Sequence record: OL960581
From: Escherichia phage vB_EcoM_SA20RB
Length of the DNA: 64,000 nt
Strand: one strand, 5' to 3'
In this document: piece after piece, positions 26,444 through 64,000 of the stretch
Layout: the number at the start of each line of letters is the position of its first letter
How positions within the stretch are numbered: the stretch's first letter is position 1
The notes under the pieces: generated by a model
Told to the model about the DNA's origin: nothing
Database searches by the model: none
The model's input: the letters and a program-made list of their open reading frames with translations, nothing else
Translations under genes and position numbers: made by a program

Positions 26444-26631
26444 TATTCTTCTACATGTTGTTTACGACCTTTCCTATCAATAAAGGTATATTCAACAAAT
26501 GTTCCAATATAGTCTTTATCTACATCATGAGGACTATTAATTGGGCATTTAGTACGGCAAATGCGTTCCCATTGACGAATAATTTCTGCTTTGTTTTTAG
26601 GATCAAACGGATGCGGGTAATGTACTTTCAT
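26419..26631 (-). CDS. Hypothetical protein (tk.3 position)
   Basis: ORF-track 70 aa. Confidence 0.5.
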   Translation of the reverse strand: MKVHYPHPFDPKNKAEIIRQWERICRTKCPINSPHDVDKDYIGTFVEYTFIDRKGRKQHVEEYCLKVTWL

Positions 26632-27082
26632 AATCCACCACTATTAAATCAATATCAGGAGTAAACATGTCGATTAATTTAGAAACCTTATCCCAATCAC
26701 CGCCAGCAATACCACAACCTATGCGTGGAATGTAAATTACTGGTTTAAACAAAAGGGTCTCTGCCTGTAGATTTAATTCTATCATGCAGTTTACTAAAGC
26801 ACCATAATCAAGATTAGGACCCGGTTCGTATTGCGTATACAGGTTATAGCATATACCAAATCCCGTAGGACTATGTTTAAAAACAATAGACATATCGCCT
26901 AATTTATCGCGAGAACCGTACTCGGTAGTAGTTTTATCTATTTCTAAAATTTTAGGATAGGCCCTCGCTAATTGACCCGCTACACCTGAACCCATAGTAT
27001 GAAAGCAGTTGCACCCGTGCGCAATAATATTACCTTGAAGAAATAGGGCGACAATATCGCCCTTGATATATTTTACAATCAT
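26603..27082 (-). CDS. Macro-domain-like protein (putative ADP-ribose binding/hydrolase), tk.4 position
   Basis: 159 aa; HGCNCFHTMGSGVAGQL and IPRIGCGIAGGDWDKV resemble macro-domain glycine-rich loops. Confidence 0.55.
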   Translation of the reverse strand: MIVKYIKGDIVALFLQGNIIAHGCNCFHTMGSGVAGQLARAYPKILEIDKTTTEYGSRDKLGDMSIVFKHSPTGFGICYNLYTQYEPGPNLDYGALVNCMIELNLQAETLLFKPVIYIPRIGCGIAGGDWDKVSKLIDMFTPDIDLIVVDYESTLPASV

Positions 27083-27426
27083 CTAGTACTCAATCCTCGA
27101 TTATAAGAATCTACCAAACGGTCAACCATTGAATGACAAGCGGCTTTATCTTTCTCCTCCGCAACTGAACATTCTAAGGTATTCCACTTTTTAGCATATC
27201 GTTTTAACAATGTATCATTTTTATATCTACTTGATTTATCTCTTTCTCCGTCTTTATATGCATATATTAATTTCTGCGCAAATTCAGCTTGGCATGCTTT
27301 ATTTTTCCCACAATAATCTGCCGCAGTGCGATTTACATATTCTCTAATTTCAGTATATGATGTATCTGCTGACGCAGAAGCAGAAAATGAAATTAATCCT
27401 ATACATAAAACCAAAATTTTAGTCAT
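27079..27426 (-). CDS. Secreted small protein in the T4 vs position (115 aa as T4 Vs); function uncertain
   Basis: N-terminal signal peptide MTKILVLCIGLISFSASASA; synteny only. Confidence 0.45.
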   Translation of the reverse strand: MTKILVLCIGLISFSASASADTSYTEIREYVNRTAADYCGKNKACQAEFAQKLIYAYKDGERDKSSRYKNDTLLKRYAKKWNTLECSVAEEKDKAACHSMVDRLVDSYNRGLSTR

Positions 27427-27964
27427 TTACTATTTCCAAAAGTTTATTATTTTTAAGGTAATTAGCCTTTTCTAGGACTTCAGAAGCATATTTAGAACCT
27501 GCTTTAACATTCCATCCCGAATTATAAGAGGATATTGCTTTTCTTATATCACCCTTATGTATATTTAACCAATAAGAAAGTTCAATGTACGCCCAGGAAG
27601 CTGAATTGGATCGTTTATTCAACATTCTTTTTATTTCGGCATCGGTCATATTATAACCAAGTTCCTTAACTCTTGCTCGCATAGTAGGCAAATAATTTTG
27701 GAACATTCCGTAGGCGTGATGCTTTGGTTTAGATTTTAAATTAACTCCGGCAGAGCTTTCTTGCCATAAAATAGCAGCCATTATATGACCCAATCCGCTC
27801 TTGTGGATGTTTTTGTGTGTTTTATATTTTCCATCCTTAGAAAATTGTTCCCCGAATTGATATGCGTAGCGCATGTTATCGAGTTGGACATTACTGAAAG
27901 TATGCTCGGAGCTATGTGCCATCATTGAAATGGCCAATAGACCAGCGAGTAGTGCTTTTCTCAT
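27419..27964 (-). CDS. Secreted lytic transglycosylase-like protein (vs.1 position)
   Basis: 181 aa; signal peptide; SLT-like WQESS...AYGMFQ motif. Confidence 0.55.
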   Translation of the reverse strand: MRKALLAGLLAISMMAHSSEHTFSNVQLDNMRYAYQFGEQFSKDGKYKTHKNIHKSGLGHIMAAILWQESSAGVNLKSKPKHHAYGMFQNYLPTMRARVKELGYNMTDAEIKRMLNKRSNSASWAYIELSYWLNIHKGDIRKAISSYNSGWNVKAGSKYASEVLEKANYLKNNKLLEIVND

Positions 27965-27971
27965 GCTTACC

Positions 27972-28433
27972 TCATTGAGTTTTAATTACGGCTTTAGAAG
28001 CCTTTCCTGGTAAACGACGACTGTTGATAATTGCCATCCTACATTGAAGTGACGGGTCTTTGAACTTCGCGTTAGGTTTACAAACTGTAAATCCAAGCCA
28101 AAGATTTCCATCTGTGATTTCTAAACGTCCAGGACGATATTCAACCCCATCAATAAAATCCTCGTCAATGTCAGGACGCGGAGGCATACTCAGGAATTCA
28201 TTAACTTCTAAAACATGGTCTTTTATTTTGTGGAATAATTCAAAAACATATGTCTCATCAATCTCCCGTTGAATTGCACGATCAAGAAGATGTTGAGAAT
28301 ATTTTAGATGAAACGATGAGACCCCTGCTGCTTTTGATGCCTCACGAATCTCATTGTTAATTTGACGAAACTCCGACTCAAAGTGACGACGAAGTTTATT
28401 TCGACGGATAAAAACTTCTGTATTGATAGTCAT
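27972..28433 (-). CDS. regB: Site-specific endoribonuclease RegB
   Basis: 153 aa; N-terminus MTINTEVFIRRNKLRRHFESEF; length and position match T4 RegB; early promoter directly upstream. Confidence 0.85.
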   Translation of the reverse strand: MTINTEVFIRRNKLRRHFESEFRQINNEIREASKAAGVSSFHLKYSQHLLDRAIQREIDETYVFELFHKIKDHVLEVNEFLSMPPRPDIDEDFIDGVEYRPGRLEITDGNLWLGFTVCKPNAKFKDPSLQCRMAIINSRRLPGKASKAVIKTQ

Positions 28434-28460
28434 GTTATTCTCCTCTTAACTGATAGAAAA

Positions 28461-28490
28461 ATTATACCACAGTCAAGAGGAAAAGTAAAC
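28461..28490 (-). promoter_or_regulatory. T4-type early promoter (-35 GTTTAC, -10 TATAAT) for regB
   Basis: Minus strand reads GTTTACttttcctcttgactgtggTATAATttttctatcagttaagaggagaataacATG. Confidence 0.65.
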
Positions 28491-28492
28491 AA

Positions 28493-28813
28493 TTATTCTT
28501 TAAATCTAATCAATTTATTCATAGACTTTGTAACTTCTGCACGAACCTCATGTAGGTTTTTAAGCTGTTCAAGACGCTGCTCATAGTAAGCAATTTCATC
28601 TTCTTCGAGACAGTCCTGTGAATCTTCTTTAAGATAACGTGCATAGTCCTGGAAAGCTTTACGGACTACTTCCTGGAAGTCATCAAGACTTTGAATTTTC
28701 TTAGGAGCAACAGATACACGACGAGGGGCAGTATAATACTCATAACCAAACCCTGCGCTTAATTGGGCCATTAATATTTTTCCTCTGGTTGGAACACAGC
28801 ACGACAAGCCCAC
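28493..28813 (-). CDS. Hypothetical protein (vs.3 position)
   Basis: ORF-track 106 aa. Confidence 0.5.
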
Positions 28814-29037
28814 ATACTGGCTTCTTTGAGTTTCGTTTTAGCAATAGTTAACTGATCGAGACTTTCAGCATAATTCTTCGCGAATTCACAGTCTTCACAA
28901 TTATTTAGTGCTTCCCAGAATTCATCATACAAAGCATCAAAGATAAGTCCTAAACGAACTTCAGCGTCTTTGATAGCATTCACTTTACCGATTTTCTCTT
29001 CAGTATGTGGTTTATAACCTTTAATGTCTTCAATCAT
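28771..29037 (-). CDS. Vs.4-position protein, possible Acb2-like cyclic-oligonucleotide sponge (by synteny)
   Basis: 88 aa helical acidic protein, second ORF after regB; assignment from memory that T4 Vs.4 is Acb2. Confidence 0.45.
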
Positions 29038-29251
29038 ATTTTACTTCCTCACCAGTACCTAAATCATATTCAACTAAACGAATAGGCTCATGAATGCCAT
29101 AACCCTGAACAGAAATTTCTGTCGTAGGATAAATTCCATCAATATCACCCATATTCCATGCTTCATTAAATTGCTGTTCGCCTGAATTACTAAACCACTC
29201 GGCGAAAGCATTTAGCACATCTTTAGAACCTTCAATAATTATCTTTGCCAT
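29030..29251 (-). CDS. Hypothetical protein (vs.5 position)
   Basis: ORF-track 73 aa. Confidence 0.5.
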   Translation of the reverse strand: MAKIIIEGSKDVLNAFAEWFSNSGEQQFNEAWNMGDIDGIYPTTEISVQGYGIHEPIRLVEYDLGTGEEVKYD

Positions 29252-29613
29252 TACAAACTCTCAGTAAAGGTACGAGCGATAACGTCGCGCTGCTGTTCCG
29301 GAGTTAGAGAGTTAAAGCGAACTGCATAACCGGATACACGGATGGTCAGCTGCGGATATTTTTCCGGATGCTTAACTGCATCTTCCAGAGTTTCACGACG
29401 CAGAACGTTAACGTTCAGGTGTTGACCACCTTCAATTTTAACTGTAGGCTGTTGCTCAATTTCAATTTCACGGGCATGCAAACCATAGAAAATTTCTGGG
29501 TCTACAAAAGAGTCCTCTTTAAAGGTTTTAGAGACAATAATTCGTGCTTGAATACCATCTTCAAAATAAATAGTACCTTTATGTGTGCCTTCAAGAATTT
29601 GATATGCTTTCAT
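29251..29613 (-). CDS. GrcA/YfiD-like autonomous glycyl-radical cofactor (vs.6 position)
   Basis: 120 aa; C-terminal [56 protein letters not shown] is a glycyl-radical domain signature. Confidence 0.8.
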
Positions 29614-29620
29614 ATAAACC

Positions 29621-29848
29621 TCAATTAGAAAATAAATTTATCCAAGATTGTTCTTTAATTAAAAATGGCTCAGAATCATATGCCATTAAACTCTGTGTGA
29701 TTAGTCCTTTAAAAGGCCCATCAATAAATTCCATGGTAAAATATGGAATTTTATTCATTAGCCGTGCATTAGGAGCCGTGCACAAAACTCTGCATCCTTT
29801 GAATACGCCTTTTTGTAATTTGTATTGCTTAGGATAAAATTCGCTCAA
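29621..29848 (-). CDS. Hypothetical protein (vs.7 position)
   Basis: ORF-track 75 aa. Confidence 0.5.
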
Positions 29849-29948
29849 AATGTTATTTTTTTTGCCAAAATTTCAAAATGATTCACCAATTTATTTTTAA
29901 TAGTTTTTGGTGAAAAATAAAGATATTCGAAAAGCTGAGTGTCTGTCA

Positions 29949-30491
29949 TCATTGCATTCCGATTACGAAAAACTGCGGACGAGTAATACCACCAATGCAG
30001 CATTTACTATTGCAGCAGTGTTGCACAGTTTCAATATGAATATCGTAAATTTTATCCATATCAGGAGATTTAACAGGCTCATCGATTATATACAAAATTC
30101 GAGAAAGCGATAAACCTCTGAACTTGCTACCTCTATTACCAACAAAACTACGGACAGAATCAGTAAATAAACGGAATCGAATATCATCGCTAGAATAACG
30201 AGAAAATTCTTTTTTAATGCGGCCCGCAGAAATTTTAGCGTAAGCTGAAGTATTAGAAAGAACAATAACTGTTCCACCATCATACAACCAATTAGCGGCA
30301 AAATTAGTTACTGCAGTTGATTTACCAGATTGTCTGCCACCATCTAAACGAAGTGTACAATATTCTTTAAATAAATGCGACGAATCAGGTACATAAAATC
30401 CACTATTACAAATTTCTTCTACTCTAGCATCAGAATGGTGTGTAAAAGCATTCATCAGGGATAGATAAGGACCAGTTAAAAATGTTCTCAT
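29949..30491 (-). CDS. Small P-loop NTPase-like protein (Walker A GGRQSGKST, Walker B-like ILYIIDEP)
   Basis: 180 aa; motifs read from the translation; sits where T4 has vs.8/denV. Confidence 0.5.
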   Translation of the reverse strand: MRTFLTGPYLSLMNAFTHHSDARVEEICNSGFYVPDSSHLFKEYCTLRLDGGRQSGKSTAVTNFAANWLYDGGTVIVLSNTSAYAKISAGRIKKEFSRYSSDDIRFRLFTDSVRSFVGNRGSKFRGLSLSRILYIIDEPVKSPDMDKIYDIHIETVQHCCNSKCCIGGITRPQFFVIGMQ

Positions 30492-30631
30492 TTCTTCTCT
30501 CTAAGTTTGGGCCATTCCATGGCGCATGAATTGTCCATTTCTGTATTTACCCATTACCGCACTTGGGCTCGACCTTATTACAGGTTGGCGGGAATCCCTC
30601 ACAGAATCATGAGGTCCAGGTTGTTCCCATA

Positions 30632-31105
30632 TTATTTGAACGATTTAACGTACTGAATAGAACCTTTACTATTCACGAAAGCGATTTTACCATTTTTATT
30701 ATACATGGTAGCAGTACGCTGATAGCCATAAGTTTGCTTACCAGATTGATAACCAACTAATGCAAAATTATCTTCACCCATTTTATTCTGTTTAGCACGA
30801 ATGCGTTCATGACCATGTGCCATAAGAACCTTAGCATCACCAGTTGCAATGGATCTACGAGTTTTTTCATCTTCAACTGTATTAACAAAGTCGTCAAATG
30901 AATCAAATTTAGCATGAGATTTATTATACAGTTTTCCATCTACTGCATAATTATATCCCTGTACATCCATCTCAACTTCTGTACCATCATCCAATACAGC
31001 AGTGATTTTCTGTCCTTTTTTAAATTTCAAAAGATCAGTAAAAGATTCAGCAATAATTTGAGAATTAATAGCTGCTTCAGTAATAAATTCTTGATATGTT
31101 TTCAT
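30632..31105 (-). CDS. Internal-protein-like protein with capsid-targeting-sequence-like N-terminus
   Basis: 157 aa; N-terminus MKTYQEFITEAAINS resembles the ipI leader MKTFKEFTST; occupies the T4 ipII/ipIII locus next to e; early promoter upstream. Confidence 0.55.
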   Translation of the reverse strand: MKTYQEFITEAAINSQIIAESFTDLLKFKKGQKITAVLDDGTEVEMDVQGYNYAVDGKLYNKSHAKFDSFDDFVNTVEDEKTRRSIATGDAKVLMAHGHERIRAKQNKMGEDNFALVGYQSGKQTYGYQRTATMYNKNGKIAFVNSKGSIQYVKSFK

Positions 31106-31159
31106 GTGTTTCCTTTAAATATTTTAATTAGTAATCTATTTATTTAAGTAACTGTGAAT

Positions 31160-31189
31160 ATACTATCACAGTTTTAGGAGAAAGTAAAC
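31160..31189 (-). promoter_or_regulatory. T4-type early promoter (-35 GTTTAC, -10 TAGTAT)
   Basis: Minus strand reads GTTTACtttctcctaaaactgtgaTAGTAT. Confidence 0.5.
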
Positions 31190-31193
31190 AACT

Positions 31194-32162
<969 letters not shown>

Positions 32163-35771: not shown

Positions 35772-35848
35772 TGGTCGAGGCAGAAGGATTCTAACCTTCA
35801 ACCAACGGATTAGAAATCCGTTGCTCTATACAATTGAGCTATGCCCCG
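35772..35848 (-). tRNA. tRNA-Arg (anticodon UCU), CCA encoded
   Basis: Hand fold: acceptor CGGGGCA/UGCCUCG, D stem GCUC/GAGC, anticodon stem ACGGA/UCCGU with loop UUUCUAA, T stem GAAGG/CCUUC. Confidence 0.8.
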
Positions 35849-35851
35849 TAA

Positions 35852-36517
35852 TTAAAATTTCATTTTTCGACCTTTAAACCATCCTTCTGGAATTGGGTCA
35901 GTTTTCTTAATACGTTTAGAAACTTTTTCATCTAATGAATGAATCCACATCATACCAAATTGGGAATTCTTTTCACCCTGTTGATGTTTATTTCTGGCGT
36001 GAGATTCTTTCATTTTATTAATAGTTTCAGGAGTATGGGTCTTACCCAAGAAAGATTTAGTATTTAAAAATTTCTCTCTATACTTAGGATTATCCCAAAG
36101 CTGTTTAAACCTTTCTGAACCCATTTTACGATATTTTTCTTTAAGGTCTGGGTCGTTCTCAAATCTGGTTTTAAAAGCAGCAGCCCCTTTTAAGGAAGCT
36201 TCTTTCTTTTTATCCAAATATTCTTTAGTGTTTAAATGGTCCCAACCACCTTCACCACCTAATTTCAAATTATAAACATCAAGGCGCTTTAAAAACTCTT
36301 CAGTCACAATATTCTTTTCTGACTCAAACATAGAGGTTTTATCGTCAAAGAACTCTAATATTTCTTTAGAGAAATTTTCTATACCATACTTGTCTTGGGC
36401 TCTTTTTAATAATTTACCAGAACCCATATATCCATCATCTAAATTTTCGGTAGAATGAGCGCCTATATAGATTTTATTATTAATTTTATTTGTTATTTTA
36501 TAAGTGTAATGGAACAT
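35852..36517 (-). CDS. segB: GIY-YIG homing endonuclease SegB
   Basis: 221 aa; N-terminal YTYKITNKINNKIYIGAHST GIY-YIG motif; lies inside the tRNA cluster as T4 segB does. Confidence 0.85.
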   Translation of the reverse strand: MFHYTYKITNKINNKIYIGAHSTENLDDGYMGSGKLLKRAQDKYGIENFSKEILEFFDDKTSMFESEKNIVTEEFLKRLDVYNLKLGGEGGWDHLNTKEYLDKKKEASLKGAAAFKTRFENDPDLKEKYRKMGSERFKQLWDNPKYREKFLNTKSFLGKTHTPETINKMKESHARNKHQQGEKNSQFGMMWIHSLDEKVSKRIKKTDPIPEGWFKGRKMKF

Positions 36518-36558
36518 AAATATCTCCTATTTCTAAGAGTATTTATGTTCCCAAAATA

Positions 36559-36630
36559 TGGCCCTGGGTGGAATTGAACCACCATCTGGCGATTATGAGT
36601 CGCTTGCTTGAACCTTCCAGCTACAGGGCC
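36559..36630 (-). tRNA. tRNA with CAU anticodon (Ile by T4 synteny; Met-like anticodon)
   Basis: Hand fold: acceptor GGCCCUG/CAGGGCC, anticodon loop CUCAUAA, T arm GGUGG-UUCAAUU-CCACC. Confidence 0.75.
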
Positions 36631-36636
36631 TTGATA

Positions 36637-36709
36637 TGCTGATTGACGGAATCGAACCGCCGACCTTCTCATTACAAGTGAGTTGCTCTACCTACTGAGC
36701 TAAATCAGC
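36637..36709 (-). tRNA. tRNA-Thr (UGU)
   Basis: Hand fold: acceptor GCUGAUU/AAUCAGC, anticodon stem ACUCA/UGAGA with loop CUUGUAA, T arm GGCGG-UUCGAUU-CCGUC. Confidence 0.8.
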
Positions 36710-36716
36710 GAAATTA

Positions 36717-36803
36717 CGGAGGCGATAGGATTTGAACCTATGAGTCGCCGGAGCGACTGCCGGTTTTCAAGACCGGTGCATTAAACCACTCTGCCACGCC
36801 TCC
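36717..36803 (-). tRNA. tRNA-Ser (UGA), long variable arm
   Basis: Hand fold: acceptor GGAGGCG/CGCCUCC, anticodon loop CUUGAAA, variable arm, T arm UUCAAAU. Confidence 0.8.
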
Positions 36804-36805
36804 AG

Positions 36806-36879
36806 TCTCCGCGGCAGGATTTGAACCTGCGACATTCTGCTCCCAAAGCAGACGCTCTACCAAACTGAGCTACACGGAG
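36806..36879 (-). tRNA. tRNA-Pro (UGG)
   Basis: Hand fold: anticodon stem UCUGC/GCAGA with loop UUUGGGA; T arm GCAGG-UUCAAAU-CCUGC. Confidence 0.8.
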
Positions 36880-36891
36880 TAAATTAAATTT

Positions 36892-36963
<72 letters not shown>

Positions 36964-36969
36964 AAACTT

Positions 36970-37056
36970 TGGTACGAGAAGTGGGACTCGAACCCACAAG
37001 GAAATCATTCCGCAGCATTTTAAGTGCTGTGCCTTTACCAATTTGGCCATTCTCGC
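36970..37056 (-). tRNA. tRNA-Leu (UAA), long variable arm, CCA encoded
   Basis: Hand fold: anticodon stem CAGCA/UGCUG with loop CUUAAAA; T arm GUGGG-UUCGAGU-CCCAC. Confidence 0.8.
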
Positions 37057-37057
37057 G

Positions 37058-37130
37058 CTGGGAATAAAGGACTCGAACCTTTGCATCTAGCAGTCAAAGT
37101 GCTGTGCCTTACCAACTTGGCTAATTCCCA
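37058..37130 (-). tRNA. tRNA-Gln (UUG)
   Basis: Hand fold: acceptor UGGGAAU/AUUCCCA, anticodon loop CUUUGAC, T arm AAAGG-UUCGAGU-CCUUU. Confidence 0.8.
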
Positions 37131-38521: not shown

Positions 38522-39218
<697 letters not shown>

Positions 39219-62531: not shown

Positions 62532-64000
62532 ATGACTTTATTATCTCCGGGCATTGAGCTCAAAGAAACTACGGTTCAAAGCACCGTGGTTAATAACTCT
62601 ACTGGTACAGCAGCTTTGGCCGGTAAATTCCAGTGGGGTCCTGCTTTTCAGATCAAACAGGTTACAAATGAAGTAGATTTAGTTAATACTTTTGGTCAAC
62701 CTACAGCTGAAACTGCTGACTATTTTATGTCTGCAATGAATTTCTTACAATACGGAAATGATTTGCGAGTTGTGCGTGCTGTCGATAGAGATACCGCTAA
62801 AAACTCATCTCCGATTGCTGGTAATATTGAATACACTATTTCTACCCCAGGTAGTAACTACGCGGTTGGAGATAAAATCACAGTTAAGTATGTTTCAGAA
62901 GACATTGAAACGGAAGGTAAAATTACCGAAGTAGATGCTGATGGAAAAATTAAGAAAATTAATATTCCTACCGCAAAAATTATCGCTAAAGCGAAAGAAG
63001 TTGGTGAATATCCAGCATTAGGTTCTAACTGGACCGCGGAAATTTCTTCGTCTTCCTCTGGTTTAGCTGCAGTAATAACCCTTGGAAAAATTATTACTGA
63101 TTCTGGTATTTTATTAGCTGAAATTGAAAATGCTGAAGCTGCCATGACAGCGGTTGAATTTCAAACAAATCTTGAAAAATATGGAATTCCAGGAGTAGTA
63201 GCTCTTTATCCAGGTGAGTTGGGCGATAAAATCGAAATTGAAATCGTATCTAAAGCTGACTACGCAAAAGGTGCTTCTGCATTACTCCCAATTTATCCAG
63301 GTGGCGGAACACGCGCATCTACTGCCAAAGCAGTGTTTGGATATGGACCACAAACTGATTCACAATACGCTATTATAGTTCGTCGCAATGATGCTATTGT
63401 TCAAAGCGTTGTTCTTTCAACAAAGCGCGGTGAAAAAGATATTTACGATAGTAACATCTATATTGATGACTTTTTCGCAAAAGGTGGTTCAGAATATATT
63501 TTCGCAACTGCACAAAACTGGCCAGAAGGCTTCTCTGGAATTTTAACTCTGTCTGGCGGATTATCATCAAATGCTGAAGTAACAGCAGGAGATTTGATGG
63601 AAGCTTGGGACTTTTTTGCTGACCGTGAATCCGTTGATGTTCAGTTGTTTATTGCTGGCTCTTGTGCCGGTGAATCTTTAGAAACAGCATCTACTGTCCA
63701 AAAACATGTTGTTTCAATCGGGGATGCTCGCCAAGATTGCTTGGTATTGTGCTCACCACCGCGTGAAACTGTAGTTGGAATTCCTGTAACTCGTGCTGTT
63801 GATAACTTAGTCAATTGGAGAACTGCAACTGGTTCATACACTGATAATAACTTTAATATCAGTTCAACCTATGCAGCAATTGATGGTAACTACAAGTATC
63901 AGTATGACAAATATAATGATGTAAATCGTTGGGTTCCATTAGCAGCTGATATTGCTGGTTTATGCGCAAGAACTGATAACGTTTCTCAGACTTGGATGTC
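62532..64000 (+). CDS. 18: Tail sheath protein gp18, N-terminal part (runs off the window)
   Basis: Translation from ATG 62532 gives MTLLSPGIELKETTVQSTVVNNSTGTAALAGKFQWGPAFQIKQV, read as the gp18 N-terminus from memory; open to the window end. Confidence 0.9.
   Translation, partial: MTLLSPGIELKETTVQSTVVNNSTGTAALAGKFQWGPAFQIKQVTNEVDLVNTFGQPTAETADYFMSAMNFLQYGNDLRVVRAVDRDTAKNSSPIAGNIEYTISTPGSNYAVGDKITVKYVSEDIETEGKITEVDADGKIKKINIPTAKIIAKAKEVGEYPALGSNWTAEISSSSSGLAAVITLGKIITDSGILLAEIENAEAAMTAVEFQTNLEKYGIPGVVALYPGELGDKIEIEIVSKADYAKGASALLPIYPGGGTRASTAKAVFGYGPQTDSQYAIIVRRNDAIVQSVVLSTKRGEKDIYDSNIYIDDFFAKGGSEYIFATAQNWPEGFSGILTLSGGLSSNAEVTAGDLMEAWDFFADRESVDVQLFIAGSCAGESLETASTVQKHVVSIGDARQDCLVLCSPPRETVVGIPVTRAVDNLVNWRTATGSYTDNNFNISSTYAAIDGNYKYQYDKYNDVNRWVPLAADIAGLCARTDNVSQTWM

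Follow-up and report, generated by a model that had tools for sequence, protein, structure and literature searches.

On sequence grounds, the minus-strand open reading frame (ORF) at 28771..29037 of the window, the whole 64,000-nucleotide stretch of DNA analysed here, is the orthologue of T4 vs.4 (now acb2), a known anti-CBASS gene. Its product is very probably a working anti-CBASS sponge, an Acb2 (Vs.4) of the T4 subtype. For hexamer assembly, ligand binding, immune evasion in vivo and the timing of expression, we infer from experiments on T4 that the protein would behave likewise.

Coding evidence

The ORF listing of the window gives an ATG-to-TAA frame of 88 codons at this position. The product has a mass of 10.2 kDa and is acidic, with a calculated pI of 4.75. 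The gene itself is described by two features:

28771..29037, minus strand: vs.4/acb2 coding sequence, 88 amino acids plus TAA, orthologue of T4 Vs.4 (ORF, 7UQ2, PF24729, PHROG 717)
29037..28774, minus strand: tblastn match of T4 Vs.4, 98.9% identity

The window is part of a T4-like (Tequatrovirus) genome. Of the phage records, 904 match the 4.7 kb around vs.4, with identities of up to ~97%, and a 24-kb piece of the window finds its best match among phage records at ~96%. Compared directly, the window and T4 genes differ at 9 of 264 coding nucleotides; eight of the differences are synonymous, and the ninth produces D45N. Since 19% of random single-base changes would be synonymous, the chance of finding at least eight among nine is ~1e-5. 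The gene of phage FelixPlatter differs at seven nucleotides, all synonymous, and the two proteins are 100% identical. This synonymous excess (8:1 against T4, 7:0 against FelixPlatter) indicates a real gene, on which strong purifying selection acts. A chance ORF or a feature called on the wrong strand was considered for 28771..29037 and rejected by the substitution pattern together with the matches to curated families.

Family assignment and predicted fold

Among all PDB sequences, phmmer ranks T4 Vs.4 (PDB 7UQ2) first, with 87 of 88 residues identical (E 8.9e-57) and D45N as the sole residue difference from this protein, which was crystallised with cGAMP. The same search gives a weak but full-length match to Acb2 of Pseudomonas phage PaMx33 ('p26', 8H2J/8IXZ; E 0.014). 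The Pfam model PF24729 (Acb2_Tad1_hairpin) is matched over all of its positions (1-58 of 58) with 71.2 bits, where the gathering threshold is 27, and PHROG 717, the family by which Jenson et al. gathered 198 Vs.4 homologues (PMC10097602), is matched with an E-value of 1.7e-32. Scores beyond the thresholds of curated models, together with orthology to the characterised T4 member, place the product in the Acb2/Vs.4 family. An NCBIfam scan of this product and of the acb1 orthologue found elsewhere in the window returned no family match, so no curated NCBI name is on offer for either. Public records already contain an identical protein from FelixPlatter (Bas40; QXV78667.1), labelled hypothetical, and most deposited relatives of Vs.4 still carry the label 'hypothetical protein'.

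A single-sequence AlphaFold2 model of the monomer (pLDDT 77.5, moderate) predicts helices at residues 13-45 and 47-81, and thus the protomer fold of two long antiparallel helices with short terminal segments. In a Foldseek search of the PDB with this model, the chains of 7UQ2 come first (E 4e-10), followed by the Acb2 entries 8H2X/8H2J (E 0.01-0.02), and all remaining matches have E-values of at least 0.4. The TM-score to 7UQ2 is modest (0.58); generic designed helical hairpins reach higher TM-scores to the model, but with poor E-values. The low TM-score probably reflects a monomer model, built without an alignment, that misses the conformation of the hexamer. The structural match supports the assignment, yet with a moderate pLDDT and a TM-score of ~0.58 it adds little beyond sequence.

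The first-pass annotation had described an acidic, helical protein of 88 amino acids, in agreement with the calculated pI and mass and the two predicted helices, and its coordinates are exactly those of the ORF. It had further proposed a possible Acb2-like sponge from position and size. That proposal is now borne out by the 87 of 88 residues shared with 7UQ2, by PF24729 and PHROG 717, and by the retention of the functional residues described below. The comparison with Acb2 that it had called for shows clear similarity, with 7UQ2 first in both alignment and Foldseek and PaMx33 Acb2 next; a lack of similarity in alignment or structure, which it had named as the outcome that would count against the idea, is clearly not what was found.

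Gene order and junctions

Mapping of T4 proteins by tblastn gives the following genes around the ORF:

27082..27426: vs
27422..27964: vs.1
27975..28433: regB
28496..28771, minus strand: vs.3 (T4 Vs.3 maps to 28771..28496)
28774..29037, minus strand: vs.4

The order in the T4 reference annotation (vs, vs.1, regB, vs.3, vs.4) is identical. Because the window keeps this order, 28771..29037 is the second ORF past regB. The first-pass annotation had put it four slots beyond regB; the count of four holds, but from vs rather than from regB.

At its two ends the gene is joined closely to its neighbours by these elements:

29046..29050, minus strand: Shine-Dalgarno-like motif GAGGA, within the 3' end of vs.5 and 8 nt before the vs.4 ATG (GGTGAGGAAGTAAAAT, directly followed by the ATG)
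29030..29037, minus strand: 8-nt overlap of the vs.5 stop and the vs.4 start, ATGATTGA (ORF coordinates and sequence)
28769..28773, minus strand: TAATG junction, in which the vs.4 stop and the vs.3 ATG overlap by one base (sequence)

The GAGGA is a putative ribosome-binding site for vs.4. The 8-nt overlap is annotated identically in FelixPlatter, RB32 and RB68, and suggests translational coupling of vs.5 and vs.4. At the other end of the gene, the T4 annotation has the same single shared base (vs.3 62800..63078, vs.4 63078..63344). The tight packing of vs.4 with its neighbours suggests translation from a polycistronic message. A scan of 27900..31800 for sigma-70 promoters and terminators found no dedicated vs.4 promoter; it is uninformative, as 12 promoter-like sites were found against 13.6 expected. 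The sole good promoter consensus near vs.4 lies upstream of regB (28489..28461). The eight tRNAs at 35.8-37.1 kb were the only matches in an Rfam scan of both strands of the whole window, and no match lay near vs.4.

The upstream neighbour vs.5 (29030..29251, minus strand) encodes 73 amino acids, as in FelixPlatter, RB32 and RB68. The T4 vs.5 is annotated with 58 amino acids and stops 36 nt short of vs.4, whereas that of the window extends 8 nt into vs.4. The alignment of the annotated T4 gene to the window falls into two frames, and compared with the common form the T4 reference vs.5 appears to carry a frameshift or a truncation.

Functional residues and position 45

The affinity of T4 Vs.4 for 3',3'-cGAMP corresponds to a Kd of ~30 nM, and its hexamer contains three cGAMP molecules, each in a pocket between two protomers (PMC10097602). 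For the T4 protein, inhibition of CBASS effectors has been demonstrated both in vitro and in vivo (PMC10097602). The bases of the ligand are stacked by Y8 and F82, with hydrogen bonds or salt bridges contributed by Y8, H11, K23 and R79 (PMC10097602). Mutations at Y8 or F82, or at the interface residues L29, A66, A73 and A77, abolish inhibition of the CBASS effector CapV, as do the screen mutations A77I, T12I and S74N (PMC10097602). F33A destabilises the hexamer, and the interface roles of L29, F33, A66, A73 and A77 come from mutagenesis and ultracentrifugation (PMC10097602).

All 13 named positions (Y8, H11, T12, K23, L29, F33, L60, A66, A73, S74, A77, R79 and F82) are kept in the window protein, among them the six residues of the cyclic-dinucleotide pocket (Y8, H11, K23, S74, R79, F82) and the five of the hexamer interface (L29, F33, A66, A73, A77). 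In an alignment of ten sequences (window, T4, FelixPlatter, T2, RB32, ZCKP1, RB68, PG7, Kpn35c1 and PaMx33 Acb2), K23 and R79 never change, and the conservation of Y8, H11, S74 and F82 is at least 90%. The N-terminal (5-32) and C-terminal (66-88) segments hardly vary. Variation is found in residues 34-65, with D, N, G or H at position 45. D45N therefore lies in the least constrained part of the protein, at the hairpin tip or turn between the predicted helices. Position 45 is absent from the published lists of ligand-contact and interface residues (PMC10097602), and its placement relative to ligand and interfaces is taken from these lists and from the alignment.

D45N is the sole difference from the characterised T4 protein, and it might shift the ligand preference or the stability of Acb2, for example towards weaker affinity for the Panoptes decoy 2',3'-c-di-AMP with cGAMP binding kept. 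N45 is rare in the T4-like background, as only 2 of 1231 phage records match the window sequence (T4-like, N45) at 99% or more, and the Panoptes system has been proposed to exert selective pressure on the specificity of Acb2 (PMC12657218; PMC12393519). However, the change from D to N is conservative and lies in the variable hairpin tip, outside the published contact and interface residues, and one replacement beside eight synonymous changes does not point to positive selection. Beyond the rarity of N45 nothing speaks for such a shift, which is improbable. An adaptive role for the substitution, in which altered hexamer dynamics or discrimination between CBASS signal and Panoptes decoy would keep CBASS evasion while triggering Panoptes less, is distinctly improbable.

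Another reading would make the protein an Acb2-family sponge for a different signal, such as the 3'cADPR of type I Thoeris, instead of CBASS dinucleotides. The Acb2 proteins directed against Thoeris are distant homologues with a different pocket, in which L6/V7 lie on a beta strand (PMC12393519). The window protein, on the other hand, keeps Y8 and F82 and is 99% identical to T4 Acb2, for which binding of cyclic dinucleotides (CDNs) was established by crystallography and isothermal titration calorimetry (PMC10097602). This identity to a characterised CBASS sponge makes the Thoeris-directed reading implausible; it was rejected on residue content and retains hardly any probability.

Comparison with known anti-defence proteins

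One of the closest known systems is T4 Vs.4 itself (NP_049728; 7UQ2; Jenson et al. 2023, PMC10097602). The two proteins have the same length of 88 amino acids, and share the genomic slot, the TAATG junction to vs.3, the contact and interface residues, D61 and T68. They differ by D45N in the hairpin tip, and the genes by eight further, synonymous nucleotide changes. The FelixPlatter (Bas40) protein QXV78667.1 is 100% identical, N45 included, and its gene shares the vs.5/vs.4 overlap and the gene order. The differences from FelixPlatter consist of the seven synonymous changes in vs.4 and of the flanks, where the FelixPlatter vs.7 is intact.

PaMx33 Acb2 (8H2J, 8H2X, 8IXZ; Huiting et al. 2023 as cited in PMC10312549) belongs to the same family and has the same fold, with an alignment over the full length, but is only ~25-27% identical to the window protein. 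Its pocket residues Y11 and K26 correspond to Y8 and K23 here. It forms a hexamer with three CDNs and shares the sponge mechanism of the T4 type (PMC10312549). PaMx33 Acb2 also binds cyclic trinucleotides, via R67 and T74, whereas the T4 type has D61 at the position of R67 (PMC10312549). T4 Acb2 binds dinucleotides and not cA3 or cAAG, and D61R does not rescue this binding (PMC10312549). The residues of the dual-pocket subtype (PaMx33/JBD67 type, R67 and T74) are not found in the window protein, which has D61 and T68 as in T4 and can for this reason be assigned to the T4, dinucleotide-only subtype.

T2 Vs.4 (YP_010073770.1), from the same locus, is 94% identical over the aligned part. It has 86 amino acids (NC_054931 10591..10851), and its N-terminus is two residues shorter and rearranged (M-KILRDKPH). 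The pocket residues G7 and Y8 are missing from the T2 protein; both are kept in that of the window. The T2 allele is regarded as probably defective in CDN binding, with a probable mutation of the binding site (PMC12657218). A decaying or inactivated acb2 of the kind proposed for T2, kept only through the conserved position in the operon, is highly improbable here. Natural loss-of-function alleles do exist, as the T2 alignment and the remark in PMC12657218 indicate, and the nearby vs.7 is frameshifted in the window. Against this, the frame of the window vs.4 is full-length, its pocket and interface residues, ribosome-binding site and coupling junctions are intact, and synonymous to non-synonymous ratios of 8:1 against T4 and 7:0 against FelixPlatter argue against decay. 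A T2-like inactivated allele was rejected at the sequence level, as G7 and Y8 are both present, and a functional, T4-type Acb2 remains the preferred reading.

Two further proteins share parts of this strategy. Tad1 (Thoeris anti-defence 1) has the PF24729 hairpin and the sponge strategy in common with Acb2, but forms a separate family and binds gcADPR in addition to cyclic oligonucleotides. Acb1 (T4 57B) targets the same CBASS signals as Acb2 and is encoded in the same window:

38525..38980, minus strand: acb1/57B orthologue, 99.3% identical to T4 57B over 152 amino acids, an anti-CBASS cyclic-oligonucleotide phosphodiesterase

Acb1 degrades the signal, whereas Acb2 sequesters it. With this orthologue and acb2 both in the window, the phage carries both known T4 anti-CBASS genes. 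T4 itself has been noted to carry both acb1 and acb2 (PMC10312549).

Proposed mode of action

The vs region of T4 is expressed early. By the gene arrangement and what is generally known of T4, vs.4 would be expressed soon after infection as part of a leftward polycistronic unit running from vs.8 to regB. By analogy with T4, protomers of 10 kDa, each a two-helix hairpin, would assemble into a hexamer with three pockets at its dimer interfaces, and each pocket would clamp one cyclic dinucleotide (3',3'-cGAMP or related CDNs). Within the pocket, Y8 and F82 would stack on the bases, Y8, H11, K23 and R79 would provide hydrogen bonds and salt bridges, and S74 would adjoin the ligand. The CBASS second messenger would in this way be sequestered and not cleaved. 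CapV, a phospholipase, and other effectors would therefore stay off, and the phage could complete its cycle. Binding of cyclic trinucleotides would not be expected, as in T4 Acb2.

In hosts with Panoptes, which senses the loss of its decoy 2',3'-c-di-AMP, the protein would be expected to act as a liability. T4 Acb2 binds this dinucleotide and is both necessary and sufficient for triggering of the Panoptes guard system, which is abolished by Y8A and F82C (PMC12657218). The presence of acb2 thus predicts restriction by Panoptes-carrying hosts (PMC12657218), while acb2 and acb1 together predict evasion of most cGAMP-type CBASS systems. Such predictions are useful for estimating host range and for the design of phage therapy. 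Otherwise the value of the assignment is one of annotation: the ORF should be labelled acb2 (vs.4), anti-CBASS cyclic-dinucleotide sponge, a gene ordinary for a T4-type phage. It is already known and well characterised, differs by one conservative substitution and opens no new biological question.

Other features of the window

Upstream of vs.5, the vs.7 homologue (29621..30003, minus strand) is split into ORFs of 52 and 75 amino acids by an indel at ~29863. The cause is a poly-A run two nucleotides longer (A8, in GGCAAAAAAAATAAC) than that of T4 (A6), and residues 1-31 and 31-109 of T4 Vs.7 map to different frames. The split may reflect a homopolymer error in sequencing, a pseudogene or slippage. 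The gene vs.8 (29949..30602, minus strand) contains an in-frame TAG at 30501..30503 and is without the 9-nt tandem duplication of T4, CTTATAGAG. Owing to this stop and the missing duplication, the window gene is the 180-amino-acid form, starting at an internal ATG. That length agrees with the FelixPlatter annotation and with the PHROG 1488 profile (177), and the 219-amino-acid form of T4 looks like the exception.

Several T4 genes are missing from the window. Homologues of T4 denV and ipIII were not detectable anywhere in it, and tk.1, e.2 and e.7 are likewise absent. In 30491..31194, between vs.8 and the lysozyme gene e, lies a single internal virion protein of 157 amino acids (phrog_3155), the same size as the T2 gene annotated as ipIV. 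T4 ipII gives a weak match only (33% identity) to this ORF.

The Tk.4 macro-domain protein ('A1pp phosphatase'; 26603..27082, minus strand) is 58% identical to T4 Tk.4, compared with 93-100% for the flanking genes, and tk.2 is merely 54% identical to its T4 counterpart. Judged by these identities, the Tk.4 region looks like a locally divergent, mosaic segment. The tRNA genes form one cluster:

35775..37130, minus strand: tRNA cluster of eight genes, as in T4 (Rfam)

Within this cluster lies a homologue of the homing endonuclease gene segB (35855..36517), 83% identical to T4 SegB.
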